DNA of 64,000 bases from an uncultured Candidatus Saccharibacteria bacterium (GTDB taxonomy: Bacteria > Patescibacteriota > WWE3 > UBA101185 > UBA10185), in assembly GCA_964490125.1 (NCBI GenBank), contig CAZBAJ010000005.1, positions 4,631-68,630 of the forward strand, in the 5' to 3' direction. The translations under genes and the position numbers were made by a program. This document shows positions 5,090 through 47,549 of this stretch, piece after piece (positions within the stretch are counted from its first letter, which is position 1; each line of letters opens with the position of its first letter). The notes under the pieces are model-generated. The model searched no databases. It had not been told where the DNA came from and worked only from the letters and a program-made list of their open reading frames with translations.

Positions 5090-5154
5090 GGCATATCTAC
5101 GATTGGTAGACTAGCTCTTTGAATCTCAAAAGTAATATCACAAGGAGAAGTGTC

Positions 5155-6168
5155 ATGAAACGCATGTTGGCTGTTCTGTCCGTTCTTCTCGTCCTGTTGG
5201 GGCTAGTTGCCCAGCAGGTGTCGGCATCTGGGCACATCGTTGTCGAGGGCGGTATCAACCGAGTCGAGGGGTTTGTCCCCTTCTCGCGAGACGGTGTTTA
5301 CACTAGCACTGCGAAACCATACGATGTTGTGGTTACAGTGTATAGAACGATACCGCAAGTACCCGATGTAACGATCCGCATCGAAGGTGAGGCAAGCTGG
5401 GTTCCATGGGTTTCTTCCGGAACGGGAAGTGCTGTATGGGAATACGGCACCTGGCATTTCTGGGGGATCCTTTTTCCCACGGATGGCAAGATCGAGGTTG
5501 GACTGCGCGCGCCTGCGCCCCTGGAGACTAAGCGCATCTCCGTGAATGTACAGGATGGGTTTGGGGCATCAGAGTCGCGGACAGCGTATGTGTCGCCAAT
5601 TGGACAACCGCCGACTGCAACACCGACGGCCACCCCAACGCAGACTGGCGTTCCGCCAACGGTAACGCCGACCAGTACTGCCACTCCGACGGCGACACCC
5701 GCACACACGGCAACGCCAACGGCTGAGCCGTTGATCGTGTTAGAAGGTGGGGTTAACTCACAAGAAGGGTTTACACCCCTTGATCCCACCAAACCGATCA
5801 CTGTCACAACTCGGTTCGCGGCCGACATCATCGCCACGGTGTACAACCGGGGCGGGCCTACTGGTGCGCGCATCACCGTTGATGGGTTCAGCGACTGGAA
5901 AGTTGATGTGAGCGGTACAACCGCAAAGCCCGAGTTCTCGGGGACCTTAGGGGATTGGGGGTCGTGGGACCTCGAAGGCACTTGGTCGGGCGAAGGTCCG
6001 ATAGAGATGGTAATCCATGTCAAGTCCCCACCGCCCTACCGCCCCAATCCCGGGTGGACCGTCAATGTGTCGGCGCGCCCCGCAGGCACAGACGACTGGC
6101 AGGTCCGCCAGGCTGTGATCCAGAACAGTCGCTTCGGCCCCATCTACCTGCCTTTTATCGTTCGATAA
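5155..6168 (+). CDS. GC-rich secreted protein with two duplicated domains joined by a Thr/Pro-rich linker
   Basis: ATG at 5155 follows AAGGAG. Signal peptide MKRMLAVLSVLLVLLGLVAQQVSASG. Two homologous domains of about 140 aa (HIVVEGGINRVEGF... and LIVLEGGVNSQEGF...) are separated by a linker (PPTATPTATPTQTGVPPTVTPTSTATPTATP). High GC begins exactly at the start codon. Confidence 0.6.
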   Translation: MKRMLAVLSVLLVLLGLVAQQVSASGHIVVEGGINRVEGFVPFSRDGVYTSTAKPYDVVVTVYRTIPQVPDVTIRIEGEASWVPWVSSGTGSAVWEYGTWHFWGILFPTDGKIEVGLRAPAPLETKRISVNVQDGFGASESRTAYVSPIGQPPTATPTATPTQTGVPPTVTPTSTATPTATPAHTATPTAEPLIVLEGGVNSQEGFTPLDPTKPITVTTRFAADIIATVYNRGGPTGARITVDGFSDWKVDVSGTTAKPEFSGTLGDWGSWDLEGTWSGEGPIEMVIHVKSPPPYRPNPGWTVNVSARPAGTDDWQVRQAVIQNSRFGPIYLPFIVR

Positions 6169-6288
6169 GATTTAGAGAGCAGGCGCCACGCCCCTCACAG
6201 TCACAAATGTATCCCGCTAATTTGGGGGATTACAGATGATTGAGAGGGCGTGGCGTTTTGCGTATCTGGCAGTATAATCAAACAAGCA

Positions 6289-9200
6289 ATGTTAAAAATT
6301 ATCTCATTTTTTAAAACCAATATTTCAGGAATTGTTTTAGTTGTCATTTGCCTCTATATTTGTCGCGCTAATTACACACCCGGCACTTTTTTAACCGGCT
6401 GGGATACTTTGCATCCGGAGTTTAACTACCGCATTTATTTAAGCCGTATTTTGGACGGGGTGTGGCAGGAACATCAGAGTTTGGGGGCGGTGGCTACTCA
6501 AGCCCACGCTAGCGAGATTCCGCGCATTTTAGTGTTAATGCTTTTGGATGTATTTTTGCCCATGAATATGGTTAGGTATGCTTACGCATTTTTGATGTTA
6601 ATTTTAGGTCCTTTGGGGCTGTACGCGTTTATTAAGTATGTGTTAAGGGGCAGGGGTTTTTGGACGGGGGAAGTGGCGGGTTTTGCCGGCGGGTTGTTTT
6701 ACTTGTTTAATCTTGGGACTTTACAGCATTTTTATGTACCACTGGAGATGTTTTTAACTCACTTTGGACTTTTGGGGTGGTTGTTTTTGACCGTGGTGTG
6801 GTTTTTGCGGGAGGGGAGTAAAAAAGCGCTTGTTTGGTTTTCTGTAGTTACGCTTTTTATGACTTCTCAAGCCCACACCGCAACTTTGTTTTATGCTTTT
6901 TTCCTGTATTTGGTGTTATATCTTCTGACATATTTTGTCGCACACAAATGTAACGGCCAAATTTTTAAAAGAGCCGTTCTTATAATCACAGGAACCCTTG
7001 TTATCAATCTATTTTGGTTTCTGCCAAATGTTTATTTTGCAGTTACTCACGGAAAAGAAATTCAGGAGTCAAAAATCCATTTGTTGTTTTCACAAGAGGC
7101 TTTTTTGCAGAATAAAGAGTTTGGAAACATTAAGGATACCGCTTTACTTAAAAGCTTTTTGTTTAATTGGGGGGAGTATGTGGGGAATAACAGATACGGG
7201 GATTTATTGGATGAGTGGAAGTATCACTTACAACAGCCTTTAGTAATTCCTTTGGGTTATGCTTTTTTTGGTATGGCGGTTCTGGGATTGATTATGGCTG
7301 TTGTTAGGCGGGAGAGGGAACTTGTAGGGATTGGACTAATGTTTTTAGTAGGGTTGTTCTTTATTTTTAATGTTAATCCGCCACTTGGGGGTGTTTTTGT
7401 CTGGTTGCAGGATAATATCCCGCTTTTTAAGGAGGCGTTTAGGTTTCCGTTCACTAAATTTTCCATAGGTTTATTGTTCTGCTATGCAGTATTTTTTTCC
7501 TACTTTGTGTCTGTTGTGGTCAAAGTCTTGGGAGGATGGTCTGCCCATCCGACGAATGGGCTTCCCGCCGTAGGCGGGATCGGGACCCGTTTGGCGGGGG
7601 GCAGACCTCCGACCAGAATACTCGCGTGGTTAGGGTTCGTCGTCCTACTTTTTCTGTCCTTCTACTACTATGCCAAACCCATGTTTACCGGCGGATTAAT
7701 AAGCCCAAGTATGCGCGTTGCCATTCCCCAAAGATACTTTGACATGTTTAGCTATTTTGATACCCAAAAGGAGTACGGGCGGGTACTTAATTTGCCAATC
7801 CATTCCATGTGGGGTTGGGTGTATCACAATTGGGATCCGCAAACTACTCTAGGCTATCAAGGCGCGGGTTTTTTGTGGTTTGGTATAAAACAGCCGTTAA
7901 TTAATAGGGAGTTTGACAGGTGGAATCTTACAAATGAAAAACCTTACATGGAAATTTCCACGGCAATTTATTCCGAGGATGTGGCTACGCTGGAAAAGCT
8001 TTTGGATAAGTACAAAATCCGTTGGTTTTTGGTGGACCAAAGTATTGTAGCGCCAGAGCAGGATGTCAAACAGCTTTTTTATCCCCAAATAGAGTCGCTT
8101 CTTAAGTCGTCCCCAAAAATTAAACTGGAGAAAGACTTTGGGGACGGTTTAGCAGTTTACAAATACTTTCCAGACAAGGACTTTGCCCAAAAGGAGTGGC
8201 TCGATACCTATTATATAGCGGGCGACAGCACTTTTAAGGAGCCAAACGACCCTATTTATAACACCTACGGGAATTACGCGGGAAATGACGAAAAGTCTTA
8301 TCCGTTTGTGGGTATTACCAATTACGACGAAAGCGTAAAGCAGGGTTACATTACCAGCGACGCCAAAAACCTATATTTTAATAATGCTTTGGCTTTTTCT
8401 AATTTGTCTGCCAATATTGCCGGCAATCTGTTTCAATACTTGGTTTTTCTGGACAAGGCGGGGGAGAACTACTTATTAAAATTTGAGCCCGTGGAGAAAT
8501 CGCTTGAACTTGGTTTTTCTTATGATTTAGGCAAACTTGATCCAAACATAGTTGGGGTTGCAATAAATAACTCGACGGTTTTGTCTGTTGTCAAACCGCA
8601 GGTGAGGCAAGTAGTGCTTTTGGATCCAAGTCAGCAAGTAAAAATAAGTCAGCTCTCCCAGTCGTCCAACTTACTTACCGACACAGATTTTTTTAGTGCG
8701 CTGGAAAATTGCAGTTTGGTGGGGGAACAAACCTCGTACTCTTTGGAGCGCGTGGAAAACGGCTTTGTGTTGTTGGCGCAAAATGTGGACGCGTGCGTTA
8801 CCGTAAATTTGCAAAACTATTTGGCCGACGATGCCGAGGGCAAGACGAATGGAGCTACAAGCTTAATCCCGGGCGATTCCTGGAGTGCGGGCAGTATCTA
8901 CCAAGTTACAGTAGGTTTAGGTGAAGGTGCGGTTCTAAACAAGCAGGAAGTTTGCGTTTTTGACGATGTTTCTGGACTTTGCGTTAACCCCCCGCTTGCA
9001 GACGGCAAAACATTTTTTACCCCTCTACCAGGCAGAAATTATAGCTTGCGACTCTTCGCTCGTGGTAAAAAGTCACTTGCTAGAGAGGTTAGGGTAGAGT
9101 ATTCCAATCTAGGACTTTATACGCTAAAGAATGAAAAAGAGTCGGCTTTTAAGCCCAACTTAGTCCTGCAAAAAGACTTGGTCTTAAGCAAGTGGCAATT

Positions 9201-10020
9201 TGAAAAAGACCTTAATTATTCCGGCAATGCGTCCACACTTACCAACTACCCCAGGCTTTGTAATACCGGCGCAACCGCGTTTAATAAGTCCAAAATTTCT
9301 GTTATGGGCAGTTTTGGCACGCCCTTTATTAGGTACGAGTCCCACGGGGAGGCTTTGTGCGACTCTTTTGAATTTCCCATGTTTGACCACGCTAGTGGGG
9401 CGGTGTTGGAGGTTCGTTCAAGAAATTTGGCGGGTATGCCGTTAAGACTTTGTTTAACTAATGAGTATTCAAAGCGGTGCGACTTATATGTGTCGCTCAC
9501 CAAAAATGTTGATTTTACCACGCAGTACTTTTTAGTTCCGCCTATGGGCAATGGTAGGGGCTACACGGTAAATTTTAGCAATTTAATTTTTGGGACTTCT
9601 GTAAGCATTAACGACTTGGAATATGTGGCTTTGGTGCCGTTTCCTTACTACTTGGTACGGGGTATTCACAAGCCACTTACTACTGTAGCTGGGCGACTTT
9701 TGGTTTACAACCAAGCCTTTGAAAACGGCTGGATCGCGTGGTGCGGGTTTAAGCCCTGTCGCGCGGAGCATGTTGTGGTGAATAATTGGGCAAATGGTTG
9801 GGTTTTTCCCTCGGTTCAGGGAGACTCGTCGGTTTCGTCCAGCTCGTCGTCCCAACAAGTCGGTCAACCACCTCAAAATCTATCACCGTCGTCCCCAAAT
9901 GTAATTATTTTCTTTTGGCCACAAGTTTTAGAGTATCTTGGTTTTGGCTTTTTAATCGGCTGGTTTGCTTTAGTCGTCCTGCTCCCAAAACTCCAAAATT
10001 ATAAAAAAAGCTTTGACTGA
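6289..10020 (+). CDS. very large polytopic membrane protein with extracytoplasmic domains (GT-C / YfhO- or AftD-like)
   Basis: About 1240 aa from the ATG at 6289. The track ORF begins at a GTG at 6250 that lies inside an upstream hairpin. About 13 N-terminal TM helices, an internal TM pair, a large central/C-terminal soluble region and a C-terminal anchor helix. Carries an in-frame GC-rich palindromic insertion at about 7537-7610. Confidence 0.5.
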   Translation: MLKIISFFKTNISGIVLVVICLYICRANYTPGTFLTGWDTLHPEFNYRIYLSRILDGVWQEHQSLGAVATQAHASEIPRILVLMLLDVFLPMNMVRYAYAFLMLILGPLGLYAFIKYVLRGRGFWTGEVAGFAGGLFYLFNLGTLQHFYVPLEMFLTHFGLLGWLFLTVVWFLREGSKKALVWFSVVTLFMTSQAHTATLFYAFFLYLVLYLLTYFVAHKCNGQIFKRAVLIITGTLVINLFWFLPNVYFAVTHGKEIQESKIHLLFSQEAFLQNKEFGNIKDTALLKSFLFNWGEYVGNNRYGDLLDEWKYHLQQPLVIPLGYAFFGMAVLGLIMAVVRRERELVGIGLMFLVGLFFIFNVNPPLGGVFVWLQDNIPLFKEAFRFPFTKFSIGLLFCYAVFFSYFVSVVVKVLGGWSAHPTNGLPAVGGIGTRLAGGRPPTRILAWLGFVVLLFLSFYYYAKPMFTGGLISPSMRVAIPQRYFDMFSYFDTQKEYGRVLNLPIHSMWGWVYHNWDPQTTLGYQGAGFLWFGIKQPLINREFDRWNLTNEKPYMEISTAIYSEDVATLEKLLDKYKIRWFLVDQSIVAPEQDVKQLFYPQIESLLKSSPKIKLEKDFGDGLAVYKYFPDKDFAQKEWLDTYYIAGDSTFKEPNDPIYNTYGNYAGNDEKSYPFVGITNYDESVKQGYITSDAKNLYFNNALAFSNLSANIAGNLFQYLVFLDKAGENYLLKFEPVEKSLELGFSYDLGKLDPNIVGVAINNSTVLSVVKPQVRQVVLLDPSQQVKISQLSQSSNLLTDTDFFSALENCSLVGEQTSYSLERVENGFVLLAQNVDACVTVNLQNYLADDAEGKTNGATSLIPGDSWSAGSIYQVTVGLGEGAVLNKQEVCVFDDVSGLCVNPPLADGKTFFTPLPGRNYSLRLFARGKKSLAREVRVEYSNLGLYTLKNEKESAFKPNLVLQKDLVLSKWQFEKDLNYSGNASTLTNYPRLCNTGATAFNKSKISVMGSFGTPFIRYESHGEALCDSFEFPMFDHASGAVLEVRSRNLAGMPLRLCLTNEYSKRCDLYVSLTKNVDFTTQYFLVPPMGNGRGYTVNFSNLIFGTSVSINDLEYVALVPFPYYLVRGIHKPLTTVAGRLLVYNQAFENGWIAWCGFKPCRAEHVVVNNWANGWVFPSVQGDSSVSSSSSSQQVGQPPQNLSPSSPNVIIFFWPQVLEYLGFGFLIGWFALVVLLPKLQNYKKSFD

Positions 10021-10039: not shown

Positions 10040-10258
10040 ATGAAAAAAGCACGCAAAACATTGTACGGAAACATGGTTGCTATTATTCAACCCGCGGAGG
10101 AGGGGGGTTTTTATGCCTACTGTCCTTCTTTACCCGGTTGTGCCAGCCAGGGAGAAACTTATGCTCAAACTGTAGAAAATATTACGGAGGCAATTCAGGG
10201 CGTGCTGTACTATTCTGCCAGGAGCTTAATAAAGTCAAAAGTCTTATGCGCCTTCTGA
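10040..10258 (+). CDS. HicB-like (UPF0150 family) small protein, orphan
   Basis: AIIQPAEEGGFYAYCPSLPGCASQGETYAQTVENITEAIQ matches the HicB/UPF0150 core. No HicA partner seen. The 3' end overlaps the convergent vapC. Confidence 0.4.
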   Translation: MKKARKTLYGNMVAIIQPAEEGGFYAYCPSLPGCASQGETYAQTVENITEAIQGVLYYSARSLIKSKVLCAF

Positions 10259-10641
10259 TAGAACAGGCCGTCTGCAGTTACATAATTACACCCCATCTTT
10301 TTTGCCAACGCTAAGAAGATACAGTCGTACACTGCTGTCTCTCCAAGCACCGATGATAGTTCAAAAGCCTGTTTTAATAACGGTGTGTCTTCTTTTATAT
10401 AAATAAAGTCAGCGTTATCAAATGTCTTAATTATTTCGGTAATTTGGTCGTTGCTTAATATTCCCCATTTAGCTTTTTTAGTTAATGTAGAGATAAACTC
10501 TATTTTTGCTAGATTTGGGCAATAGATCTTTGTTTTAGCATTTTCCAGCTTTTCCAACAGAACCAACGCAAGATGAGAATCGTCTTCTTGTAAGAATATT
10601 TTTACTAGAACACTAGTATCCAGTACGGTCTTAGATGTCAT
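10210..10641 (-). CDS. vapC: PIN-domain ribonuclease toxin VapC
   Basis: N-terminal VLDTSVLV acidic motif. A conserved D/E pattern follows. 143 aa. Confidence 0.7.
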   Translation of the reverse strand: MTSKTVLDTSVLVKIFLQEDDSHLALVLLEKLENAKTKIYCPNLAKIEFISTLTKKAKWGILSNDQITEIIKTFDNADFIYIKEDTPLLKQAFELSSVLGETAVYDCIFLALAKKMGCNYVTADGLFYQKAHKTFDFIKLLAE

Positions 10642-17107: not shown

Positions 17108-18457
17108 ATGAATGTAAAGAGATCTAATGGTCAAGTTACTTACTCAAGTTTTGGCGACAAGGGTGACGCAAGGCAGTCGGACAGAGGCGATAGACAAGAC
17201 AGCAGGATGGACAGAGCCGACAGAGGTGATAGAAACGGAGATCGTCCGTCAAGCGTAAGTTACTACCGCGAACCCCAACAAGGTCAAACAAATCAGTCAA
17301 ATTATCAAGAATATTTAGATACTTACCAGGGAGAGATGGTTCAGGTGGAGGGTGTACTAGAAATGTTGCCAGATTATGGTATTTTGCGACAGGATGACCG
17401 AGCCAGTGGCGATGATAATCTGCCTAGAGATGTCTATATAAGCCTTTCCCAGGTTAAGCGGTTTTCTTTACGGGTGGGCGACAAGGTAAAAGGTCAAGCC
17501 AGACCTCCAAAGGAGGGCGAGCGTTATCTTTCTATGTTAAAGGTTGAGCAAGTAGAGGGTTTGGATCCAGAAGAAGCTAGAAAAAGGCCATCGTTTAATA
17601 AACTTACGCCAATTTTTCCTACCGAATGGATGCATTTGGAAACCGAGCCTGACATAATTGCCACAAGACTTATTGATATAATTTCTCCTATTGGTAAGGG
17701 TCAAAGAGCAATGATTGTAGCTCCGCCCAAAGCGGGAAAAACCTTTTTACTTAAAGACATTGCAAATGGTATCACGGTGAATTATCCGGATGTCATACTT
17801 ATGGTGGCATTAATAGGGGAGCGACCGGAAGAGGTAACCGATATGCGACGCAGTGTTAAGGGCGAGGTTTTTTCCAGCAACTTTGACGAAAAAGCAGAAA
17901 ATCAAACAGGTGTTGCGGAAGTATGCTTAGAGCGGGCTAAACGCTTAGCGGAAAAGGGTAAAGATGTGGTTATTTTAATGGACTCGTTAACCAGGCTTGC
18001 CCGCGCCTACAACATGGTGGTACCACCTTCTGGTAGAACACTTTCCGGTGGGTTTGATCCGTCCGCGCTATACCCGCCTAAGCACTTTTTTGGTGCCGCC
18101 CGTAAATTTGAAGAAGGCGGTTCTCTAACCATTGTGGCTACAGCTCTGGTTGATACGGGTTCCAAGATGGATGATGTGATTTTTGAGGAATTTAAGGGTA
18201 CAGGTAATATGGAGTTGCGACTTGACAGATCGCTTTCCGAAAGACGGATTTTTCCCGCCATAGACATTAAAGCAAGCTCTACCAGGCACGAGGAAAAGCT
18301 GTACGACGAGAAAACTTTGGAATCAGTGTATAGGTTGCGTAGAATGGTGGACTTGTTGGACGACAGACAGGCTACAGAACTTGTTATTACCCGACTTAAA
18401 AAGTCAAAAACTAACAAGGAATTTTTGGAAACCTTGCATCAAGCACAAGCCGCCTAA
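17108..18457 (+). CDS. rho: transcription termination factor Rho with Arg/Asp-rich N-terminal extension
   Basis: Walker A (APPKAGKTFLLKDIANGI) plus the RecA-like core typical of Rho. N-terminal low-complexity RDR-rich region. Confidence 0.9.
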   Translation: MNVKRSNGQVTYSSFGDKGDARQSDRGDRQDSRMDRADRGDRNGDRPSSVSYYREPQQGQTNQSNYQEYLDTYQGEMVQVEGVLEMLPDYGILRQDDRASGDDNLPRDVYISLSQVKRFSLRVGDKVKGQARPPKEGERYLSMLKVEQVEGLDPEEARKRPSFNKLTPIFPTEWMHLETEPDIIATRLIDIISPIGKGQRAMIVAPPKAGKTFLLKDIANGITVNYPDVILMVALIGERPEEVTDMRRSVKGEVFSSNFDEKAENQTGVAEVCLERAKRLAEKGKDVVILMDSLTRLARAYNMVVPPSGRTLSGGFDPSALYPPKHFFGAARKFEEGGSLTIVATALVDTGSKMDDVIFEEFKGTGNMELRLDRSLSERRIFPAIDIKASSTRHEEKLYDEKTLESVYRLRRMVDLLDDRQATELVITRLKKSKTNKEFLETLHQAQAA

Positions 18458-18502: not shown

Positions 18503-18579
18503 GGCCTTCATGCCCCTCTCGTCGCGGGTCCCTGTCCGCCTTTGGCGGACGCCCGACTCCTCGAAAGTGCATGAAGCCC
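18503..18579 (+). repeat. GC-rich structured palindromic element, copy A
   Basis: Core ...tcatgcccctctcgtcgcgggtccctgtccgcctttggcggacgcccgactcctcgaa.... About 90% identical to the element at 63769-63844. Nested stems gtccgcc/ggcggac, cgtcg/cgac and an outer ccttcatgc/gcatgaagg. Confidence 0.55.
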
Positions 18580-18628: not shown

Positions 18629-19819
18629 ATGCTATTTACCATAGGTCGTCCGGTGTCAAAAAGGTTTGTGGAGATGCGCTTTACCAACCTTATCCCATAC
18701 GGACGCAACAAAATTTTAGTCCTCCTAAAAGACCTTGGTCTATTCTTTAGATGGCTGGGCGTGTATTTTGCGCTTAAAATCAAAAAATTCTTCCTTTTAG
18801 TGGGAAAAACCCTAGTTTTAGTCGTCCAAAAAGTCCAGGATCTTAAAAGTTATTTTGTGGCAAAACTTATTTGGTCACGGGGGAGGCTGGGCAGGCCGGT
18901 GGCAAATTTTATCGTCATGCTTTTGGCTTTAAGCGTATTCTTTTTTGGAGAAATTCTTAGCGGGTCAAAATTAGTGGTTAGCAAAGAGGTTGACCCAGAC
19001 TATTTAAAAACGGTTGTGGACATTATTCCGGAAAAAAACATTGCGCTAACCACTATTCCGGAAGAGCGCCAACGGACGCAGTATCTGGCTTACAAAATCG
19101 AGTCGGGCGACACTTTATTTGGCATTGGAAATAAATTTAAGGTTTCTGTTGACGCGTTAAAGTATGTAAATAATTTGTACGACGGATCGGTGCTAAAGGT
19201 TGGGAGTGAAATTGTGATTCCGCCTGCTTCTGGCTTGATTCATAAAGTAGAGGCGGGCGATACACTTGCGTCCATTGCTAAAAAATACTCCGTACCGTCA
19301 CAGGCTATTGCGGACTTTAACTACCTGTTAGAGCCTAATAAATTGGCTTTAGGGACAGAACTTGTTATTCCTGATGCTAAAATTCCTCAACCTGTAGTTT
19401 TGGGTTTGCCTGTTGGACTTGCCACTATTGCCCAAGGTGTTAACGACGCGAGTGCTAAAAAGGGTTGGTGTATGTGGCCTACATCGGTTAGCGTAATTAC
19501 CCAAAACTTTTCTTGGTATCATAATGGTTTGGATATTTCCGGAGGTGGAACGCCCCCAATTTATTCTTGCGCGGGCGGCGTGGTTGTTAGAGCGGGTTGG
19601 GATCCGTTTGGGCTTGGTTTGCATGTTAGAGTCGACCACGGTAACGGTTACGAAACAATCTACGGTCACATGAGTAGACTAGATGTAAGCTACGGCGACA
19701 AAGTCAAAAAGGGCGAAATTGTAGGGATTATGGGTAGTACAGGCAACTCTACAGGTCTGCATGTTCATTTTATGATAAAGTACAACGGGTCGCCACAAGA
19801 TCCTTTAAAGTATATTTAG
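18629..19819 (+). CDS. LysM-domain M23 family peptidoglycan metalloendopeptidase
   Basis: Two LysM repeats (YKIESGDTLFGIG..., HKVEAGDTLASIA...). C-terminal M23 motifs (HNGLDI, GSTGNSTGLHVHF). TM region near the N-terminus. Confidence 0.8.
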   Translation: MLFTIGRPVSKRFVEMRFTNLIPYGRNKILVLLKDLGLFFRWLGVYFALKIKKFFLLVGKTLVLVVQKVQDLKSYFVAKLIWSRGRLGRPVANFIVMLLALSVFFFGEILSGSKLVVSKEVDPDYLKTVVDIIPEKNIALTTIPEERQRTQYLAYKIESGDTLFGIGNKFKVSVDALKYVNNLYDGSVLKVGSEIVIPPASGLIHKVEAGDTLASIAKKYSVPSQAIADFNYLLEPNKLALGTELVIPDAKIPQPVVLGLPVGLATIAQGVNDASAKKGWCMWPTSVSVITQNFSWYHNGLDISGGGTPPIYSCAGGVVVRAGWDPFGLGLHVRVDHGNGYETIYGHMSRLDVSYGDKVKKGEIVGIMGSTGNSTGLHVHFMIKYNGSPQDPLKYI

Positions 19820-21334: not shown

Positions 21335-22051
21335 ATGACAAATGAAGAAATTACTCTCCACGCCTTAGAGTTTGCCAAAAAGAATAAACTCCGCATAGCC
21401 AGAGAATTGACCGATCCAAGTAAATATAAGCCTACAGACCATCCCGTCTCTGTTTTTATGGCAGGTTCTCCTGGGGCGGGTAAGACGGAATTTTCTAAAA
21501 ATCTTGCTAAAGATTTACATAAAGGTGAAGGCATCAATGTTGTTCGGATTGACGGGGATGATTTAAGACCATATATGCCGGGTTATACAGGAAGTAACTC
21601 TCACCTATTCCAGGGTGCCGTTTCTTTAATTGTTGAGAAGATGCAAGATTTAGTATTACATACAGGGCAAAACTTTATTCTGGATGGAACTTTCTCTAGT
21701 TATCGTAAAGCTACCGAAAACATCAATCGCTCCTTGTCTAAGGGCAGGGTTGTTTCAGTTTTTTACTTGTATCAAAGACCTGAAATAGCTTGGAAGTTTA
21801 CCCAGGCGCGTGAAAAAGCAGAAGGTAGAAACATTCCCAAAACAGCCTTTATTAGTCAATTTTCTGAGGCTAGAGAAACAATTGAGAACCTAATTTTGAA
21901 TTATGGTGGTCTTATTAAGATAACTCTTGTGGCTAAAGACTTTGAGAATAAAACAATCGATCTTGTTGAAATTGCGGACAATGCGACAAAAATTGACGGT
22001 GTTACTTTTGCTCGTTATAATGAGCGAGAATTAGAAAGTTTATTAAAATGA
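21335..22051 (+). CDS. zeta-toxin-like P-loop kinase family protein
   Basis: Walker A (FMAGSPGAGKTEF) with the zeta/AAA_33-like layout. ATGA overlap with the next small ORF. Confidence 0.55.
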   Translation: MTNEEITLHALEFAKKNKLRIARELTDPSKYKPTDHPVSVFMAGSPGAGKTEFSKNLAKDLHKGEGINVVRIDGDDLRPYMPGYTGSNSHLFQGAVSLIVEKMQDLVLHTGQNFILDGTFSSYRKATENINRSLSKGRVVSVFYLYQRPEIAWKFTQAREKAEGRNIPKTAFISQFSEARETIENLILNYGGLIKITLVAKDFENKTIDLVEIADNATKIDGVTFARYNERELESLLK

Positions 22052-28531: not shown

Positions 28532-29500
28532 ATGCTCGAACACCAAACTAGCAACGCCAATCAAGTTAGCCGTGAGTATCAGATCAATCGTGAATGTCCA
28601 GTCAACCACGATTATCAAGTCAATAGAATTACTAGACAGCAAGCTGATTACCCAAAGTTACTAAACAAGGCGCCGGACGCGCCGGATCAGTTGTATTTTT
28701 TGGGCGACTTTAAGCCCGCGATTTTTGATAAGGCTTTAGCTGTGGTGGGCAGTAGGGCTATGACGCTGTATGGTGAGTGGGTGGTTTCTAACATTGTTAG
28801 GGATGTTGCCCAGAGTGGGGTGACTATAGTTTCTGGTTTCATGTACGGGATTGACGCGCTTGCCCATAGAGTTGCCTTAGATGCCGGCGGTATTACGGTT
28901 GCCGTAATGGCAGGCGGGGTGGACTATATTTTTCCCAGTCATCAAGAGGACATGTATTGGGAAATTGCCCAAAAGGGGATGGTGATTTCGGAATTTCATA
29001 AGCCCGACTTTGGCGGAAAGTGGATGTTTGCCAGAAGAAACCGTATTGTAGCGGGTTTGTGTCAAGCTACTTTGGTTGTGGAGGCGGGGCAAAAAAGTGG
29101 CTCTCTTATTACGGCGGGCTTTGCTAAAAAGTATGACAGGCAGATACTTACGGTGCCGGCTAATTTAAATGCACCAAACTCGTTTGGGACTACGCAACTG
29201 CTTAAGGATGGGGCAAAAATGGTTACCTGTGCCGACGATATTTTAAAAGTATATTACGATACTCCAAACAATTACCGACATAAATCTATAAGTGCGGTAA
29301 ATAAGCGGTTAAAGTTAGAGGTAGCCGACGAGGATTCCAGGAGGCTTTTAAGATTTCTTAGTAGGGAGGGGCTTACGGTTGATCAATTGGTTCAAAAGTC
29401 ACGCCTTGCAGTAACAGGAGTCTTGAGATGCATTACGGGTTTAAGTTTAGGAGGTCTTATTGAAGAGCGGGGAGGTAGGTATTATGTTGCTAAAAGTTAA
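28532..29500 (+). CDS. dprA: DNA-processing protein DprA (Smf)
   Basis: Rossmann-like DprA core (LYFLGD..., AVVGSRAMTLYGEW..., SGFMYGIDALAHRVALDAGGITVAVMAGGVD). C-terminal wHTH-like region. Confidence 0.8.
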   Translation: MLEHQTSNANQVSREYQINRECPVNHDYQVNRITRQQADYPKLLNKAPDAPDQLYFLGDFKPAIFDKALAVVGSRAMTLYGEWVVSNIVRDVAQSGVTIVSGFMYGIDALAHRVALDAGGITVAVMAGGVDYIFPSHQEDMYWEIAQKGMVISEFHKPDFGGKWMFARRNRIVAGLCQATLVVEAGQKSGSLITAGFAKKYDRQILTVPANLNAPNSFGTTQLLKDGAKMVTCADDILKVYYDTPNNYRHKSISAVNKRLKLEVADEDSRRLLRFLSREGLTVDQLVQKSRLAVTGVLRCITGLSLGGLIEERGGRYYVAKS

Positions 29501-31073
29501 GTCGGCATATTTTTTTGGAATTGACGCGTTTGATGTTGATGTGGAGGTAAATATTTTGGATAGAAGTATGCCGGGTTTTGAAGTGGTTGGATTGGCGGGT
29601 AGGGAAGTGGAGGAAAGCCGTGAGCGGGTAAAAAACGCGCTTCTTAATACTTTTAAGGAATTTCCTTACAATAAAAAGATTTTGGTTAACCTTGCTCCGG
29701 CGGATGTGCCTAAAGAAGGTTCGTATTACGATTTGCCCATTGCCGCCTGTTTGTTGAGCAGTATGCGGGACATTAATTTTCCCAGCGACTCCGCGTTTTT
29801 TGGCGAGCTTTCTTTGGATGGGAGTGTGCGCAAACTTAAGGGCGCGTACTTGTTTGTGTCGTTTGCAAAGGAGCGATGTTTAAAAAATGTGTTCATTCCA
29901 TTAGCTTGTTACCAAGAGGTCAAAAACATAACAGGGGTAAATATTTACCCAATTTCTACTCTTAACGATTTACTGGACTACGAGACCGCCCGACAAAAGT
30001 TTTTTGAGGCTCATGAGAACAAAAGAAATCAAGTCGGTTTGGAAAATCAACAGACAGTCATCCCTATTTATACAGAAATTTCTACCGGCGGTGTAACATT
30101 GTCAACCGACATAATTGACTTTAGTGATGTGGTAGGGCAGGATGCTGCAAAGCGGGCGTTAGAAATAAGCGCGTGCGGTGGCCACAATTTGTTAATGGAG
30201 GGTAGTCCCGGCAGCGGTAAAACCATGTTGGCAAAAGCGCTTTGCGGCATCCTGCCACAACTTAGTCAACAAGAAGAACACGAGGTTGCAAAAATCTACT
30301 CCGCCTGTGGATTATTTGAATCCAAAATTTTCTCCGGAAAATTCCGCCCGTTCAGAAGTCCACATCATACTATTACATATTCTGGCATGGTGGGTGGGGG
30401 AGCGGTGCCGAGACCTGGAGAAATAAGTTTGGCACACAAGGGTGTTCTGTTTTTAGATGAGCTGTCCGAATTTCAGTCCAACATTTTAGAATGTCTTCGT
30501 CAACCAATAGAAGAAGGTTTTATAACCATTGCTCGGAGCAAGGGGAGTGTGACCATGCCGTGCGATTTTACTCTAGTAGCTTGTACCAATCCTTGTCCGT
30601 GTGGTTATTATGGCGACGAAAAAACGCCCTGTACTTGCAAACCCTGGCAAATCTCTCTGTATTCCAAAAAACTATCCGGGCCAATTTTGGACCGAATTGA
30701 CATGCTTACCCGTGTTTCCAGTCCGCATGATGGTAAGTCAGTTAAAACTGCCCGCTTTTTACAAACCCAAACCAAGACCTCCCACATAATAAAAGAGCGG
30801 GTAGAAGAAGTTCGCCAAATTCAGCGCCAAAGATTTTTAGGTCAGACCACATTGCTAAATGCCCGCATGTCAAACAGTCAAGTCAAACAATACTGCGCGA
30901 TAAATTCAACTAGTCATGACTTATTAGACAACGCAATTGAGCGACTTCATTTATCGCCCAGGGGAGTTTTTAAAATTATTAAAGTTGCCAGAACTATTGC
31001 CGACATGGAGAAAAAGGCGCAGATAACGCCCGCGTGCCTTGCCGAGGCGATACAATACAAAACCATGGGCTAA
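29484..31073 (+). CDS. comM: YifB/ComM family Mg-chelatase-like AAA+ ATPase
   Basis: ATG at 29484 follows GGAGGTAGG. Lon-like N-terminal domain. Walker A (MEGSPGSGKTMLAKAL). Zinc-finger-like CPCGYYGDEKTPCTC. C-terminal ChlI-like domain. Confidence 0.85.
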   Translation: MLLKVKSAYFFGIDAFDVDVEVNILDRSMPGFEVVGLAGREVEESRERVKNALLNTFKEFPYNKKILVNLAPADVPKEGSYYDLPIAACLLSSMRDINFPSDSAFFGELSLDGSVRKLKGAYLFVSFAKERCLKNVFIPLACYQEVKNITGVNIYPISTLNDLLDYETARQKFFEAHENKRNQVGLENQQTVIPIYTEISTGGVTLSTDIIDFSDVVGQDAAKRALEISACGGHNLLMEGSPGSGKTMLAKALCGILPQLSQQEEHEVAKIYSACGLFESKIFSGKFRPFRSPHHTITYSGMVGGGAVPRPGEISLAHKGVLFLDELSEFQSNILECLRQPIEEGFITIARSKGSVTMPCDFTLVACTNPCPCGYYGDEKTPCTCKPWQISLYSKKLSGPILDRIDMLTRVSSPHDGKSVKTARFLQTQTKTSHIIKERVEEVRQIQRQRFLGQTTLLNARMSNSQVKQYCAINSTSHDLLDNAIERLHLSPRGVFKIIKVARTIADMEKKAQITPACLAEAIQYKTMG

Positions 31074-35086: not shown

Positions 35087-35926
35087 ATGTTTGAAGAGCA
35101 GTCGCAAAAATTGTATGACGGATTGACTGATAGGATAAATAACCTATTTGCTAAGAAGCCATTTTTTTCTACTTTGTTGTTATGTGTTTTAGTAAGTTTG
35201 GTGGTTTTTGTAGTAAGCATGGACTATAAAAGTGGCGAGGCAAAAGTGGAGGTTACTATTGCAGACAATGGAGTTAAACAGACTTTGAGCGACGCTACAA
35301 AAGAACCTAAGGAATTTAAGGTTGACTTGGCTGGGGCGGTTAAAAAACCCGGAGTCTATGTTTTGCCTTTGGGAAGTAGGTTGAGCGACCTTATTACCTT
35401 GGGTGGCGGTTTTACCAGCGATGTTTCTGCGTTGTGGGTCAGTAAAAATCTTAATTTGTCACAAAATGTCAGTGACGGGGAAAAAGTCTACATTCCTTTT
35501 GAGTGGGATTTGGCGACTTTGGAGGGGAGTGGGGAGGTGCGGGCTTTAAGTTTGGGCGTTATCCCTGGAACAAAACAGTCAAGTTTGGTGGCAACGGAAT
35601 TAAAAAAGATGGAGGTTTCTGCCGGCACAACTACCACTTCCGGTACAGGTCCATCTAATACTTCAACCGGAAGTACCGGTAATCAGGATGTCCCGGAATC
35701 TTCGTCGTCCAGCTCACCCAGTCCCACACCTACCCCCTCAACAAATAATTTAGTAAATGTAAATACCGCTACAAGTATAGAGATAGACGCCCTGCCGGGA
35801 ATTGGACCTGCTTATGCGGGTAGGATTATAGAAAATCGACCTTACGCGTCCATAGAAGAATTTAAGGAAAAAAGCGGACTTTCTGTAAATTTGGCGACGA
35901 GTTTGCAGGACTTAATTAGCTTTTGA
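35087..35926 (+). CDS. comEA: ComEA-like DNA receptor (helix-hairpin-helix)
   Basis: N-terminal TM. SLBB-like region. Ser/Thr/Pro linker. C-terminal tandem HhH (VNVNTATSIEIDALPGIGPAYAGRIIENRPY). Confidence 0.8.
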   Translation: MFEEQSQKLYDGLTDRINNLFAKKPFFSTLLLCVLVSLVVFVVSMDYKSGEAKVEVTIADNGVKQTLSDATKEPKEFKVDLAGAVKKPGVYVLPLGSRLSDLITLGGGFTSDVSALWVSKNLNLSQNVSDGEKVYIPFEWDLATLEGSGEVRALSLGVIPGTKQSSLVATELKKMEVSAGTTTTSGTGPSNTSTGSTGNQDVPESSSSSSPSPTPTPSTNNLVNVNTATSIEIDALPGIGPAYAGRIIENRPYASIEEFKEKSGLSVNLATSLQDLISF

Positions 35927-37152
35927 CACGCATGCGTAGTAGCGGATTAGTTATTTTGATTTTCTTGGCGGTGTGGCGGGTGGGCGGGTATGTTTCTTGG
36001 AAACCGGCGGTTTTTGCGGAAAAGCTAAGTAACGAGAAGAATAAGAGTTATCAGGCGCCGGTTGACGAATGTGCTACGGGTGACGACACATTGAGTATAG
36101 GTTCTGTTAGAGATGTTGGCGGAATTGAACACAAGGTGGAAAACGACATGATTGCGAGGTTGGGCGGGCTGGGCAGGGGAATTTACTGTGGGTTTAAAAA
36201 GTGGTCGATGGAATTTAAGCAACAAGCATCATATAAAATTCAAGAAGTCCTGCCCAGCCCGCACAGTGAGTTGGTTATGGGCATGGTTTTAGGCGAGGAT
36301 CAGTTCAAACTCGTCCCCACATATAACGACATCTTGAAGAAAGTTGGATTGGTGCATGTGGTTGTGGTTTCCGGCTACAATATTAGTCTGGTATTTACTT
36401 TATTAATGCGGATTTTAGGTTCGCAATACAAGGTAAAAAATCTAGTCATTGGTTTATTTATTACGCTAGTTTATGCGGGTATTTCTGGTTTTGGTATTCC
36501 TGCAGTACGCGCTTGGATCATGGGATCTATTGCGGTTATCTTTAAGTTTTATGGTCGACCAGCGGAGGGTATAGAGGTTCTTATATTTTCAGCTATAGTC
36601 ATACTTATATTAGCACCAAGTCAGTTGTTTTCTGTGAGTTTTATGCTAAGTTTTTTGGCTACACTGGGCGTAATGGTTGTCCCGGAGGCATTAAAAGGTT
36701 TTGTAGGTAAGTTGGGGGTAAAGACCGTACCTACTTATTTGGAAGATTTTAATACTAGTTTAAGCGCCCAGTTAATGGTAAATCCCGTTTTGTCGTACTA
36801 TTTTGGCACTATCAGTTTAGTGTCATTAATAGCAAACCCTTTGGTTTTGTGGGTTGTACCCATCTGTACCGTTTTGGGAGGTTTGCTGGTGGCGGTAGCC
36901 TTTATCAGTCCCCTACTTTCTCAAATTTTGGCATTTATGATGTTTCCTTTTTTGGACTTTTTTGTCAGCTTTTCCGAATTTTTTGCTAAATTTGCTACCG
37001 CTTCTGTTAGTTTGCGGTTTAGTGTTTACGCCGTGTTTGTCTATTACCTTGGACTGTTTATTGCTATAAGGCATTTTACTGTTAAAAACGCTAGGACAGT
37101 TAAACCGATTCTGCCGACTACTCGTGTGATTAGTAAAGGTAGTAGGGCATGA
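35923..37152 (+). CDS. comEC: ComEC/Rec2 DNA-uptake channel, membrane (competence) domain
   Basis: DUF4131-like N-terminus and a polytopic Competence domain (VHVVVVSGYNISLVFTLL...). ATGA overlaps at both ends. Confidence 0.8.
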   Translation: MTRMRSSGLVILIFLAVWRVGGYVSWKPAVFAEKLSNEKNKSYQAPVDECATGDDTLSIGSVRDVGGIEHKVENDMIARLGGLGRGIYCGFKKWSMEFKQQASYKIQEVLPSPHSELVMGMVLGEDQFKLVPTYNDILKKVGLVHVVVVSGYNISLVFTLLMRILGSQYKVKNLVIGLFITLVYAGISGFGIPAVRAWIMGSIAVIFKFYGRPAEGIEVLIFSAIVILILAPSQLFSVSFMLSFLATLGVMVVPEALKGFVGKLGVKTVPTYLEDFNTSLSAQLMVNPVLSYYFGTISLVSLIANPLVLWVVPICTVLGGLLVAVAFISPLLSQILAFMMFPFLDFFVSFSEFFAKFATASVSLRFSVYAVFVYYLGLFIAIRHFTVKNARTVKPILPTTRVISKGSRA

Positions 37153-37886
37153 AGATCCTTCCTTACGGTATTTTTATCGTTTTGTATTATATTTTTAGAG
37201 CGGTTTTTATTATCCCTCAAGAAAACAAGTTCTACATTGCTTTTCTTAATGTCGGTCAGGGAGACGCTTTTGTCATAAATATTCCTACTTACGGGAAGGT
37301 TTTATTGGATACCGGGTTTAATTATCAGGCTAATTACCTGTCTGCTAGACACAGTGTTTTCCCTGTTTGTCAACTAAAGTCAGTCTTTATTACGCATTTT
37401 GATTTTGATCATATAGGCGGTTTGGACAGGGTGGCTAGATACTGTAAAAGTATCCACAGATATGACAATTTATCTACGGGAGATGTTCTTACCTTGGGTG
37501 ACGCCAGATTTAGTGTTCTTAGTCCGCCTACTAAAAACACTACCCACGAAGAAAACGATGATTCTATTGTTGTGTTTCTCCAGCATAGGAATTTTAAGGC
37601 GTTGCTTCCCGGTGATGCCGGAATAGATGTTTTAGAAAAGTTACTTTTGTTAAAGTCGGAGGATTTATTGGGGTTGTCGGATCTGGATGTATACAAAGTT
37701 GCGCATCACGGATCTAAATACAACAACAGTTTTTCTTTTGTCGACCAGTTAAAGCCCAAATACTGCGTAATTTCGGTAGGGAAAAATACCTTCGGTCATC
37801 CGGCACAACAGGTTCTTGACGATCTTAACCGCGCAGGTTGCGTGGTTTTAAGAACCGACCAAGTCGGTACAATAATGCTATACTAA
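37149..37886 (+). CDS. comEC: ComEC C-terminal metallo-beta-lactamase-fold domain, encoded as a separate ORF
   Basis: MBL motifs VGQGDAF, HFDFDHIGG, VAHHGS. Normally fused to the ComEC membrane domain. Here it starts 4 nt inside the upstream stop. Confidence 0.8.
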   Translation: MKILPYGIFIVLYYIFRAVFIIPQENKFYIAFLNVGQGDAFVINIPTYGKVLLDTGFNYQANYLSARHSVFPVCQLKSVFITHFDFDHIGGLDRVARYCKSIHRYDNLSTGDVLTLGDARFSVLSPPTKNTTHEENDDSIVVFLQHRNFKALLPGDAGIDVLEKLLLLKSEDLLGLSDLDVYKVAHHGSKYNNSFSFVDQLKPKYCVISVGKNTFGHPAQQVLDDLNRAGCVVLRTDQVGTIMLY

Positions 37887-42056: not shown

Positions 42057-42431
42057 ATGAAATCCGTCAGGGAACATAAAAGAAACACGGTGGAAGTACT
42101 GACAGAGATGGATCAAGGGCAGGTATTAAACATCAGTCAAGCCCGTCCTATGTTGAGTTCTATTATTTCCAATGTTTCCAATCGGGCGTACCTTGTGGGC
42201 AAAAGGGGAGTACCGAGCATAATTATTATGGACTACTCCCTTGCTAAAAGGTTTGTGCCGGAAAGTTTTATCCAACAGGGCTTTTCCCTTAAACCCGCTG
42301 TAAAAGCTGGCAAAAGATTCGTCAACTTTGTTGAAGATCTACATACTAGGGGAGTTTTAACTACGGGCAAGCATTTAAGAAAAAACATCAGTTTAGCCCA
42401 AAATGTCGACAGGATTGTATATGGCATCTAG
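42057..42431 (+). CDS. Phd/YefM-family antitoxin
   Basis: LNISQARPMLSSIISNVSNRAYLVGKRGVPSIIIMDY matches the Phd/YefM fold. Start chosen at an internal ATG. The stop overlaps the downstream vapC start by 11 nt. Confidence 0.55.
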   Translation: MKSVREHKRNTVEVLTEMDQGQVLNISQARPMLSSIISNVSNRAYLVGKRGVPSIIIMDYSLAKRFVPESFIQQGFSLKPAVKAGKRFVNFVEDLHTRGVLTTGKHLRKNISLAQNVDRIVYGI

Positions 42432-42849
42432 CGGTTTGCTCTTAGATTCCAGTTTTCTCGTCGCCCTTTTTAACAAAGAATATTCTTTACACGAGGATGC
42501 TTTGAAGGCAAGTCATAAATTTTTGACAGAGAGTGACAAGTTATTCATCACAAACCTTATTTTTGTCGAATTTGCTACTGTACTTTCGATGCGGTTGGGT
42601 AAGAGTGGCTTAGAGGAGGCTTTGGGTCAGGATCTTTTATTAAAAGGTGGGTTAGTGGAGCTGTTTGTTAATCAGGAGCTTTACGACGAAGTCAAAAAGA
42701 CTTATTTAAAGGATGTTTTGCATAAGGATATAAGTTTTGTCGACTTAAGTACAGCCCTAGTGGCTAAGAAAATGTCGCTAGATGTAGTGTCGTTTGACAA
42801 GCATTTTAAGGCTTTAGGCAAAAGATACGGATTTAAAGTTTTTCCATAA
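42421..42849 (+). CDS. vapC: PIN-domain toxin VapC
   Basis: LLDSSFLVALF N-terminal motif, conserved acidic residues, SFVD. Confidence 0.7.
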   Translation: MASSGLLLDSSFLVALFNKEYSLHEDALKASHKFLTESDKLFITNLIFVEFATVLSMRLGKSGLEEALGQDLLLKGGLVELFVNQELYDEVKKTYLKDVLHKDISFVDLSTALVAKKMSLDVVSFDKHFKALGKRYGFKVFP

Positions 42850-44546: not shown

Positions 44547-44621
44547 TGGTACTCCCGGCGGGAATTGAACCCGCACCTTTGGCTTCGGAAGCCAAAATTC
44601 TATCCGTTGAACTACGGGAGC
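44547..44621 (-). tRNA. tRNA-Arg (anticodon CCG), CCA encoded
   Basis: The minus-strand cloverleaf has acceptor gctcccg/cgggagt with G1:U72. Anticodon loop ttCCGaa. T-arm gcggg-ttcaatt-cccgc. Discriminator A. Confidence 0.8.
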
Positions 44622-44660
44622 TTGCTTCCGCCCATTATACCATCCGCAAAGTATAGCAAT

Positions 44661-44689
44661 TTGACATTTAGTATTACCAAATGTAGTAT
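44661..44689 (+). promoter_or_regulatory. promoter TTGACA-N17-TAGTAT directing a leaderless antitoxin mRNA
   Basis: TTGACA at 44661-44666 and TAGTAT at 44684-44689. The ATG at 44700 lies about 10 nt downstream. The promoter overlaps the tRNA-Arg gene on the opposite strand. Confidence 0.4.
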
Positions 44690-44699
44690 GGTAATACTT

Positions 44700-44957
44700 A
44701 TGGATCAATTACTCTCGACTATAACAGCAAAGGGGCAAATAACCATTCCTAAAATATTTAGGGATTCTCTGGCTCTTTCGGAGTCGGACAAGGTGGTTTT
44801 TACCCAACTTGATGAAAAAACACTGGCGGTTAAATCTGCCAGCAGGGATTTTATGGTTCATAGCGGTTCCGTAAAAGCAAAAAAGCCGTTAGAAAGTTCT
44901 AATAAAGTCCAACAAAAAGTTTATAGAAAAATGGCGCGGGAATGGACTACTTTTTAG
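44700..44957 (+). CDS. AbrB/MazE (SpoVT-AbrB) family antitoxin
   Basis: MDQLLSTITAKGQITIPKIFRDSLALSESDKVVF swapped-hairpin motif. The track ORF N-terminus overlaps the tRNA and is not coding. Confidence 0.6.
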   Translation: MDQLLSTITAKGQITIPKIFRDSLALSESDKVVFTQLDEKTLAVKSASRDFMVHSGSVKAKKPLESSNKVQQKVYRKMAREWTTF

Positions 44958-45346
44958 ACACCAACATTTTCCTTAGGTTTTTTGTGGACGAGCCAAAAGC
45001 CCAGCATCAAAAGTGTCAACAACTATTTGAAAAGATTTCTAAAGGCGAGATAACTGCTGTTACTAGTCCGCTAGCCATTTTTGAAGTTATCTGGACGCTC
45101 CAAAGCTACTACGAACTGCCAAAACAAGACATTATCGACAAAGTCTTTGATGTCATTGTTTGTCCATATATTTTAATTGACGGAAAAGAACTACTGCTGA
45201 CCAGTTTGCTGATGTGGCAAGTGAAAAACATTAAGTTTAACGATATTTATCTATACAACTATCTAAAAGCCAAGGGTTTAGGTAAAATATACTCTTACGA
45301 CAAGGATTTTAATAAATTTGCCGACATTTTAAGGCTGGAACCTTAG
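44942..45346 (+). CDS. vapC: PIN-domain toxin VapC
   Basis: FLDTNIFL motif, SYDKDF. Overlaps the antitoxin stop. Confidence 0.75.
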   Translation: MDYFLDTNIFLRFFVDEPKAQHQKCQQLFEKISKGEITAVTSPLAIFEVIWTLQSYYELPKQDIIDKVFDVIVCPYILIDGKELLLTSLLMWQVKNIKFNDIYLYNYLKAKGLGKIYSYDKDFNKFADILRLEP

Positions 45347-47309: not shown

Positions 47310-47549
47310 ATGTCCAACTACACAACAGTAACATTAAGAAAAGAGACTTATAATAAACTTTCCGATTTTACCAGGGAGGTTAGAGCAACAAATTCCGAGG
47401 CTGTAGACAGGTTACTGACTTTTTATTGGAAAGACAGAAAGGAGAAGTCTGACAAAGCCTTGGAGAAGTTTAGAGAAGGCATAAGGGGTTTAGGGATTAA
47501 AAAAAAGCTCAAGAGTTCCGAACTAAATGTTATTAATGCGTATTTATGA
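47310..47549 (+). CDS. ribbon-helix-helix-type antitoxin (VapB-like)
   Basis: MSNYTTVTLRKETYNKLSDF has an N-terminal beta-strand plus helices typical of RHH/CopG. ATGA overlap with the downstream PIN gene. Confidence 0.5.
   Translation: MSNYTTVTLRKETYNKLSDFTREVRATNSEAVDRLLTFYWKDRKEKSDKALEKFREGIRGLGIKKKLKSSELNVINAYL

Follow-up and report, generated by a model that had tools for sequence, protein, structure and literature searches.

A GC-rich hairpin repeat family of WWE3-like bacteria, with copies in frame inside genes

The DNA studied here, called the window throughout, is a stretch of 64,000 nucleotides (nt) with an overall GC content of 42%, from contig CAZBAJ010000005.1 of an uncultured bacterium of the Candidate Phyla Radiation (CPR, or Patescibacteria). 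Inside one of its genes, which encodes a polytopic membrane protein, lies a GC-rich palindrome at positions 7534 to 7610. This is probably a reverse-oriented copy of a family of GC-rich, rod-like hairpins of about 65 to 85 nt that occurs in WWE3-like and related CPR bacteria. [quoted passage not shown]

The family combines variable stems with a conserved core, and has members in frame within essential genes. It resembles RPEs and intragenic MITEs, yet lacks defining features of both. At two host genes, one outer stem holds the core in opposite orientations, depending on the lineage. What is conserved is the nucleic acid and not the peptide that it encodes.

CPR bacteria have tiny genomes with few recognised mobile elements. 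A search of the literature found no description of palindromic repeats of this kind in CPR bacteria, where the hairpin family is previously undescribed.

The element within the membrane-protein gene

The host gene is an open reading frame (ORF) of 1256 amino acids (aa), counted from its first GTG; a first-pass annotation, made from the letters alone, had given 1240. As a query the protein matched no Pfam family, and one orthologue has a weak match to AftA_N. The named relatives are hypothetical proteins from candidate division WWE3, which is a CPR lineage.

The same annotation had noticed a rise in GC within an AT-rich coding sequence, and this rise is easily measured. In 100-nt sub-windows at 7500-7649 the GC fraction is 0.61-0.65, against 0.37-0.43 in the flanks on both sides. 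With 60-nt sub-windows, GC reaches 65% in just one stretch of the entire gene, 7524-7645. The nested inverted repeats and the hairpin also turned out to lie where they had been placed. The features are as follows, with R1 being the covariance model described below.

6250 to 10020, plus strand: host gene, a polytopic membrane protein of 1256 aa from the first GTG (ORF list)
7534 to 7610, minus strand (the family-forward strand, antisense to the host gene): hairpin element, a nested palindrome of 77 nt and 70% GC
7538 to 7546, plus strand: left arm of outer stem P1, GGTCTGCCC, extended by GGA(T) at 7534-7537
7599 to 7607, plus strand: right arm of outer stem P1, GGGCAGACC, extended by TCC at 7608-7610
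7563 to 7579, plus strand: apical hairpin P3, TCCCGCC-GTA-GGCGGGA, from an inverted-repeat search
7557 to 7589, minus strand: conserved asymmetric core; forward strand CGGGU, 4-nt bulge CCCG, apical hairpin, GCCCA
18503 to 18579, plus strand: sibling copy A, 70.5 bits with R1, in the spacer between rho (17108-18457) and a LysM/M23 peptidase gene (18629-19819)
63769 to 63844, plus strand: sibling copy B, 66.8 bits with R1, in the spacer between nusG (62992-63762) and the next gene, rplK by position

The two P1 arms are complementary at 9/9 positions, and the extended arms (7534-7546 and 7599-7610) contain one bulge. The core includes GGGTCCC, which is the most conserved word of the family. As a whole the element folds into a single long rod, at -62.5 kcal/mol on the plus strand (z = -6.6) and -48.6 kcal/mol on the minus strand (z = -4.6). 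None of 200 shuffles matches its fold energy.

The reading frame stays open across the element, as had been claimed, and the encoded peptide reads ...LGGWSAHPTNGLPAVGGIGTRLAGGRPPTRIL... (in a fuller stretch, LGGWSAHPTNGLPAVGGIGTRLAGGRPPTR). The translated element, GWSAHPTNGLPAVGGIGTRLAGGRPP, is flanked by hydrophobic stretches at residues 406-430 and 458-475 in a hydropathy analysis, and so it is a loop joining two transmembrane helices. Stretches of this read-through loop include LAGGRPPTR and ...NGLPAVGGIGTR.

An alignment of 60 homologues of the host protein shows who has this loop. Extra residues at the site are confined to P0001 to P0003, P0005 and P0006: the query itself and four of the six proteins that are about 70% identical to it. 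In P0004 and P0007, also at about 70%, and in all homologues at about 45%, one helix leads directly to the next with no such segment. The same holds in the DNA: the element is present in the window and in loci L001, L002, L003 and L005, and absent from L004 and L006. The segment of roughly 30 aa is therefore a lineage-specific insertion, which bears out the proposal that a small palindromic element was inserted in frame and tolerated as a loop.

The window, L001 and L002 share the same GC-rich palindrome at this site. In L003 and L005 this place is likewise filled and the arms are identical (GGTCTGCCC...GGGCAGACC). The segment that they enclose is the reverse complement, and there it encodes the unrelated peptide GGLPSAERVPVPLKRDARLVDRADRP. 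The frame is nevertheless intact in all five filled lineages, and the peptide is similar in the window, L001 and L002.

On a neighbour-joining tree of the host protein the two empty lineages group together (71%), outside the five filled ones. Support is weak at all but two nodes, which makes one gain plus one inversion merely the most parsimonious history. A single insertion in the common ancestor of the five sampled lineages would fit this.

A family of rods with locus-specific stems

The motif CCGCC-N3-GGCGG has four sites in the window, where none are expected. Two of these, at 18536 and 63802, sit in GC-rich segments of about 77 nt. Both segments hold the core CGCGGGTCCCnGTCCGCCTnTGGCGGACGCCCGACTCCTC, which also matches the reverse complement of the intragenic segment at 7534-7610.

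R1 was built from 13 copies and assigns an orientation to every copy of the family. It finds exactly three copies in the window: 7538-7607 on the minus strand, and 18507-18575 and 63773-63841 on the plus strand. For the intragenic copy the minus strand gives 56.5 bits (E = 5e-15) and the plus strand nothing. It had been suggested that the hairpin core recurs in the intergenic GC-rich elements; R1 agrees for 18536 and 63802, which it joins to the site at 7565 as one family, but not for 61963.

All copies fold into the same rod. The outer stem P1 has 9-16 near-perfect base pairs and is followed by an internal loop and then by the conserved core. On the forward strand the core opens with a covarying helix of 4 bp (GGGU/ACCC, CGAG/CUCG, GGAU/AUUC, GGCG/CGCC). 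Next comes CGGGU/GCCCG, with a conserved U.G pair, an A bulge on the 3' side and the 4-nt bulge CCCU on the 5' side. The rod ends in the apical hairpin GUCCCGC(C)/(G)GCGGGAC, that is, GUCCCGCC..GGCGGGAC.

The outer stem is specific to each locus. Within one copy, the two arms are paired at 8-9 of 9 positions; when arms are exchanged between loci the number falls to 3.3+-1.4. Arms of different loci have an identity of 0.24. Arms are common only to copies A and B, whose differences are compensatory (CC>TT with GG>AA).

A degenerate core pattern was searched for in one genome per species and in JGI metagenomes. True copies were found only in contigs of 42-50% GC, on at least 10 independent contigs, three of which lie in a single metagenome-assembled genome labelled Candidatus Saccharibacteria. 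Pattern matches in genomes of 63-75% GC (L008, L010, L011, L013, L014, L019-23, L025 and L028-30) lack an outer stem and were put down to chance.

Most copies outside the window are in frame within long ORFs. Their hosts are TsaD (L009, L024, L026, L027 and L033-36), TsaE (L012), MnmA (L016) and a PMT_2 glycosyltransferase (L017), so the in-frame insertions that were to be looked for in other coding sequences do exist. The insert divides the Pfam domains of TsaE and MnmA into two stretches. A further two copies lie in the rny-ymdB spacer (L007 and L015), which brings the totals to five host genes and three spacer contexts. Of the five host genes that carry in-frame copies, three (TsaD, TsaE and MnmA) code for enzymes of tRNA modification. 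With few loci, and a small genome rich in housekeeping genes, this bias may be chance.

Copies are read in sense and in antisense and in various frames, giving unrelated peptides such as PSSRVGSLSRQGGTPEPS, RVRASRPGGTGTRPEEG and GSGVPPWRDRDPTRRG. The peptide is therefore not conserved although the DNA is. Being GC-rich, the element is mostly free of stop codons: copies are open in a mean of 4.5 of the six frames, compared to 2.1 for random 77-mers from the window.

The TsaD genes tell the same story as the membrane protein. One TsaD clade has the insertion between GHIYANFL and FPAVVLVVSGGHT; P0131 (from L032, a locus syntenic with L033) does not have it, nor do most other homologues. The core runs in the sense direction in L009, L026, L033 and L034, and in antisense in L024, L027, L035 and L036. 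These copies are read in three combinations of frame and orientation, with unrelated peptides as the result. Their outer stems are homologous but diverged: GCGCCAAAGCCCT, GAGCCAACATCCCC, GAGGCGACATCCCCC, GGAGCCGACGCCCC and GAGGCAATGCCTCC. L034 shares its stem with L027 and has the core in the opposite orientation; L024 forms the same contrast with L034. Its copy is also decaying, with a shortened apex, a mismatched stem and a score of 21 bits.

Pairing at this site was measured on an alignment of seven distinct copies. In it, 93.5% of cells are paired. Shuffles give 84+-1.7%, with 0/500 as high as the real alignment, and sliding the partners gives 34-50%. At ten pairs both partners have changed, and seven of these ten belong to the 12 pairs of P1.

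The empty TsaD gene of L032 (10001-11029) reads GCTTCGCCTCGA at the insertion point. This resembles the 3' arm and flank of filled sites, GCTTTGGCTCCA in L033 and GTCGCCTCAA in L024. Going by this likeness, either a deletion took the 5' arm and the core, or the 3' arm may be native gene sequence.

As a separate observation, L035 has a DDE transposase gene (DDE_5/DDE_Tnp_1) at 149-1291, which is 3.7 kb upstream of a TsaD with a variant copy.

How well the DNA is conserved can be judged against the host genes themselves. Among membrane-protein orthologues, identity at the third positions of identical four-fold-type codons is only 0.36-0.53. The element is identical at 64/70 positions between the window and L001, and at 71/77 between L003 and L005. 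Conservation was ranked in 69-nt sliding windows over codon alignments. For L003 and L005 the element reaches 0.94 against a mean of 0.73, and ranks 1/1050, making it the most conserved window of the gene. For the window and L001 it reaches 0.91 against a mean of 0.74, a value attained by 42 of 1119 windows. In TsaD, L026 and L033 have 0.97 in the element against a gene mean of 0.81, and L009 and L026 are identical over the 65 element nucleotides compared, while flanking codons differ.

Selfish DNA or a functional site

If the element is selfish DNA, its history might run as follows. It would have entered the gene a single time, in the ancestor of five lineages, in the part that codes for a loop joining two transmembrane helices. 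There it may have been tolerated, read through as a Gly/Pro/Arg-rich loop, because its added length keeps the frame and GC-rich sequence seldom contains stops. Later, in one branch, the core would have inverted between its arms. The flip itself is plain from the orthologues, and its cause could be a polymerase switching templates between the inverted-repeat arms, which would keep the arms matched while flipping the core. Template switching of this kind is known to homogenise arms and to invert the spacer between them (PMC8604942). It would thus explain both the matched, locus-specific stems and the orientation flips. The family would spread as non-autonomous selfish DNA, in the manner of RPEs and MITEs; tolerance and a selfish origin are likely rather than observed.

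Evidence for mobility comes from copy A. It is absent from the rho-M23 spacer of the syntenic loci L001 and L003, and copies are therefore gained. The stem that copies A and B have in common points the same way.

Several findings sit uneasily with this account. No two copies are near-identical, unlike what a recent burst of transposition would leave, and terminal stems differ between loci, unlike the terminal inverted repeats of MITEs. There is no closely related empty site against which to set exact ends or a target-site duplication, and the rho-M23 spacers of the window, L001 and L003 align too poorly to define the ends of copy A; only the flank TC|GG...CC|TC recurs. No transposase, REP-associated tyrosine transposase (RAYT), integrase or reverse transcriptase was found in the 64-kb window, and there was no Y1_Tnp match. 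The bulges in the core survive despite the proposed homogenisation of the arms. Finally, the element is among the most conserved nucleotide stretches of its host genes, whose four-fold sites are 39-65% identical. A purely selfish, decaying insert predicts no such conservation, which suggests selection at the level of DNA or RNA, or else that copies continue to convert one another.

The recurring flank was the outcome of the search for target-site duplications that had been proposed. TC|GG...CC|TC is seen at most loci, and with only 2 nt it is indistinguishable from a terminal motif; judged by these letters it may be either a 2-nt target-site duplication or such a motif. The direct repeat TCCGAC (7548/7608) was also considered as a duplication, and rejected because L001 and L003 have not kept it and one of its two copies falls within the internal loop that the family conserves.

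Other insertion scenarios were tried as well. That the element landed in a hairpin already present is unlikely within genes, and copies A and B have a stem in common. That the outer stem is an inverted copy of the target is a minority idea only, since at the TsaD site different lineages have homologous outer stems.

The strongest competitor of the selfish account, although a clearly less probable one, is that hosts maintain or have domesticated the element as a site at the level of DNA or RNA, for example one at which a CPR-specific protein that recognises hairpins binds or processes it. Purifying selection would then keep it wherever it lies, within genes too, and it would function in either orientation. 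In favour of this are a nucleotide conservation well above that of four-fold sites and of the surrounding loop-coding DNA, its persistence after orientation flips, and the U.G pair, CCCU bulge and A bulge that are kept across lineages. The compensatory changes in outer stems at orthologous sites, and the identity of L009 and L026 amid differing flanking codons, fit it too. On the other hand, no candidate partner protein or phenotype is known, the L034 copy is visibly decaying, and the element-free lineages L004, L006 and L032 have normal genes. Occurrence in unrelated genes and spacers fits selfish spread, and gene conversion among copies plus template switching could mimic selection.

A related and somewhat more tentative idea departs further from known systems. 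The rods could be a new class of structured cis-element (a cruciform, a single-strand hairpin or RNA), read by a CPR-specific protein under purifying selection, or else a new mobile element that moves its core only, with the stem rebuilt locally. Either would account for locus-specific perfect stems, a conserved core and the excess of nucleotide conservation. The likeness of the empty L032 site to the 3' arm of filled sites is a pointer towards mobility of the core alone.

As an alternative to insertion, the first-pass annotation had proposed an mRNA structure with a regulatory role. In its specific form, control of translation, folding or decay of this membrane protein's mRNA, this is improbable. 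The sense RNA is certainly very stable, as the fold energy given above for the plus strand indicates, and in L001 the mRNA-sense stem has a U.G pair instead of a mismatch. However, L003 and L005 carry the core reversed at the very same site, and these flips contradict a regulator of this mRNA. Moreover, the same element is found in TsaD, TsaE, MnmA, the PMT_2 protein and three kinds of spacer, while two equally distant orthologues do without it.

Rfam offered no help to an RNA reading either. At gathering thresholds, Rfam 15 finds five tRNAs in the whole window and nothing else, and even at E <= 10 the regions around copies A and E yield only noise of 7-13 bits. A likeness to twister or HDV-like ribozymes (GGUCCC...GCCC) was dropped because there is no Rfam match and because copies are translated in frame.

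More improbable again is a feature of the protein, an ancestral or adaptive Gly/Pro/Arg loop whose GC content follows from its codons alone. The intact frame in five lineages, and the similar peptides of three of them, would suit such a loop. The unrelated L003/L005 peptide, encoded by the reverse complement of the same DNA, does not, and nor do the TsaD copies in their three combinations of frame and orientation. These data refute the loop as the thing conserved. Every more distant orthologue is also without it, and the 32-aa peptide of the window has no genuine relative among 1.84 billion representative proteins, where it hit only two unrelated repetitive proteins. A concatenated six-frame peptide query against 5.8 billion proteins brought up nothing new: its only hits, at E > 0.03, were proteins known beforehand.

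The idea that assembly or sequencing produced the element, through a chimeric join, say, or GC-rich reads from elsewhere, has nothing but the abrupt GC change to recommend it and is scarcely credible, because L037, from another sample and another assembler, has a gene 99.3% identical to that of the window with an identical element, and diverged versions occur in four more assemblies (ENA, JGI, Logan).

To return to the reading as an RPE-like or MITE-like selfish element, the known families can be compared one at a time. RPEs are 100-150 bp long, with a conserved peptide for each family (PMC10969869). They are inserted in frame in many Rickettsia genes, and some are old and clade-wide (PMC10969869; PMC1779305). 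Both RPEs and the present element are short interspersed palindromic repeats of a small AT-rich genome, found in spacers as well as in frame in housekeeping genes that tolerate them. Unlike RPEs, the element is 65-85 nt long and encodes no conserved peptide, given its two orientations, several frames and lack of peptide relatives. It also has a locus-specific outer stem and a conserved centre, and belongs to a different phylum. This separation is drawn from published descriptions of RPEs.

MITEs are defined by family-wide terminal inverted repeats, target-site duplications and a parent insertion sequence element. The element is like them (Correia/NEMIS, ERIC, RUP, BOX) in being small, non-coding, hairpin-forming and multi-copy, with three copies in 64 kb and more on at least 10 other contigs. 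It differs in that arms are unrelated between loci (identity 0.24; cross-pairing 3.3/9), only the 2-nt TC flank recurs, and the window has no parent transposase. Bacterial MITEs do occasionally sit within genes, as in-frame fusions (PMC10969869).

Repetitive extragenic palindromes (REPs) are 20-40 nt long and extragenic, with a conserved GTAG or CGTC head (PMC3733652). Like REPs and REPINs, the present family consists of GC-rich imperfect palindromes in which the hairpin is conserved rather than any coding capacity. By analogy, recognition of a single-stranded hairpin is a plausible mode of mobilisation for both. The element is longer and often intragenic, no GTAG or CGTC is conserved across aligned copies, and no RAYT gene lies within the window. 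The first-pass comparison with intragenic REPs and MITEs holds for an intragenic hairpin repeat, but breaks down at the stems, which vary between loci around a conserved centre.

Yeast mitochondrial DNA, which is very AT-rich, has short GC-rich palindromic mobile clusters, one of them reported inside the coding region of var1. The element resembles them in this, but they belong to a eukaryotic organelle and are unrelated in sequence.

Small hairpin-flanked inversions and quasipalindrome template switching offer the same picture of perfectly matched arms around a spacer that related lineages have in both orientations; homogenised arms and inverted spacers are what PMC8604942 describes for template switching. 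This is a mutational process and not a family, however. It accounts for flips and for stems that stay matched, and leaves aside why the core is conserved and why there are multiple copies.

The core pattern has no matches in viral contigs, and blastn found none in phage and plasmid records.

If the account is right, RPE-like selfish DNA within genes is not confined to Rickettsia. The twist is that here it does not matter which peptide is encoded, while in conservation the nucleic acid equals the best-kept parts of the host genes. Such inserts make lineage-specific loops in universal enzymes (TsaD, TsaE, MnmA), which confuse alignments, structure models and phylogenies of CPR proteins. The flips and compensatory stem changes also form a natural series for studying template switching at hairpins. 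And should the conservation reflect function, a hairpin-recognising factor of CPR bacteria is yet to be found.

Other features of the window

Upstream of the membrane-protein gene, the coding stretches 1-1112 and 5119-6168 have 55-63% GC in a genome of 42%. They match no Pfam family and are dissimilar to each other. The second (ATG at 5156) has a signal-peptide-like start, MKRMLAVLSVLLVLLGLVA, and a Pro/Thr-rich linker. Both look like recently acquired surface-protein genes.

Compared to L037, the membrane-protein gene of the window is 99.3% identical from position 70 onward, while blastn finds nothing in common between the 6 kb upstream of the gene in the window and the 10 kb that lie upstream in L037. 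This comparison indicates that a strain-variable island probably ends at the 5' end of the gene.

The fourth site of the CCGCC-N3-GGCGG motif belongs to a segment at 61907-61976 with 66% GC, which contains CCGCCAGAGGCGG and lies between convergent genes for a hydrolase (61070-61834) and an M50 peptidase (62133-62783). It is not part of the R1 family, folds no better than shuffles and has no Rfam match at E <= 10.

The gene order nearby is unusual. In most bacteria rplJ and rplL follow nusG-rplK-rplA. Here rplJ and rplL (59899-60768) are about 2.2 kb upstream of nusG (62992-63762), with the hydrolase and M50 peptidase genes in between.

Toxin-antitoxin gene density is high for 64 kb. There are four PIN-domain genes (10210-10641, 42403-42849, 44942-45346 and 47546-48001), one of which adjoins a MazE-like antitoxin gene (44565-44957), as well as a Zeta-toxin gene at 21335-22051.

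Competence genes lie at 28532-31073 and 35087-37886. They encode DprA, a ComM-like Mg-chelatase ATPase, a ComEA-like protein (SLBB + HHH), ComEC (Competence domain) and a metallo-beta-lactamase-fold protein. Uptake of single-stranded DNA could be relevant to the hairpin element.

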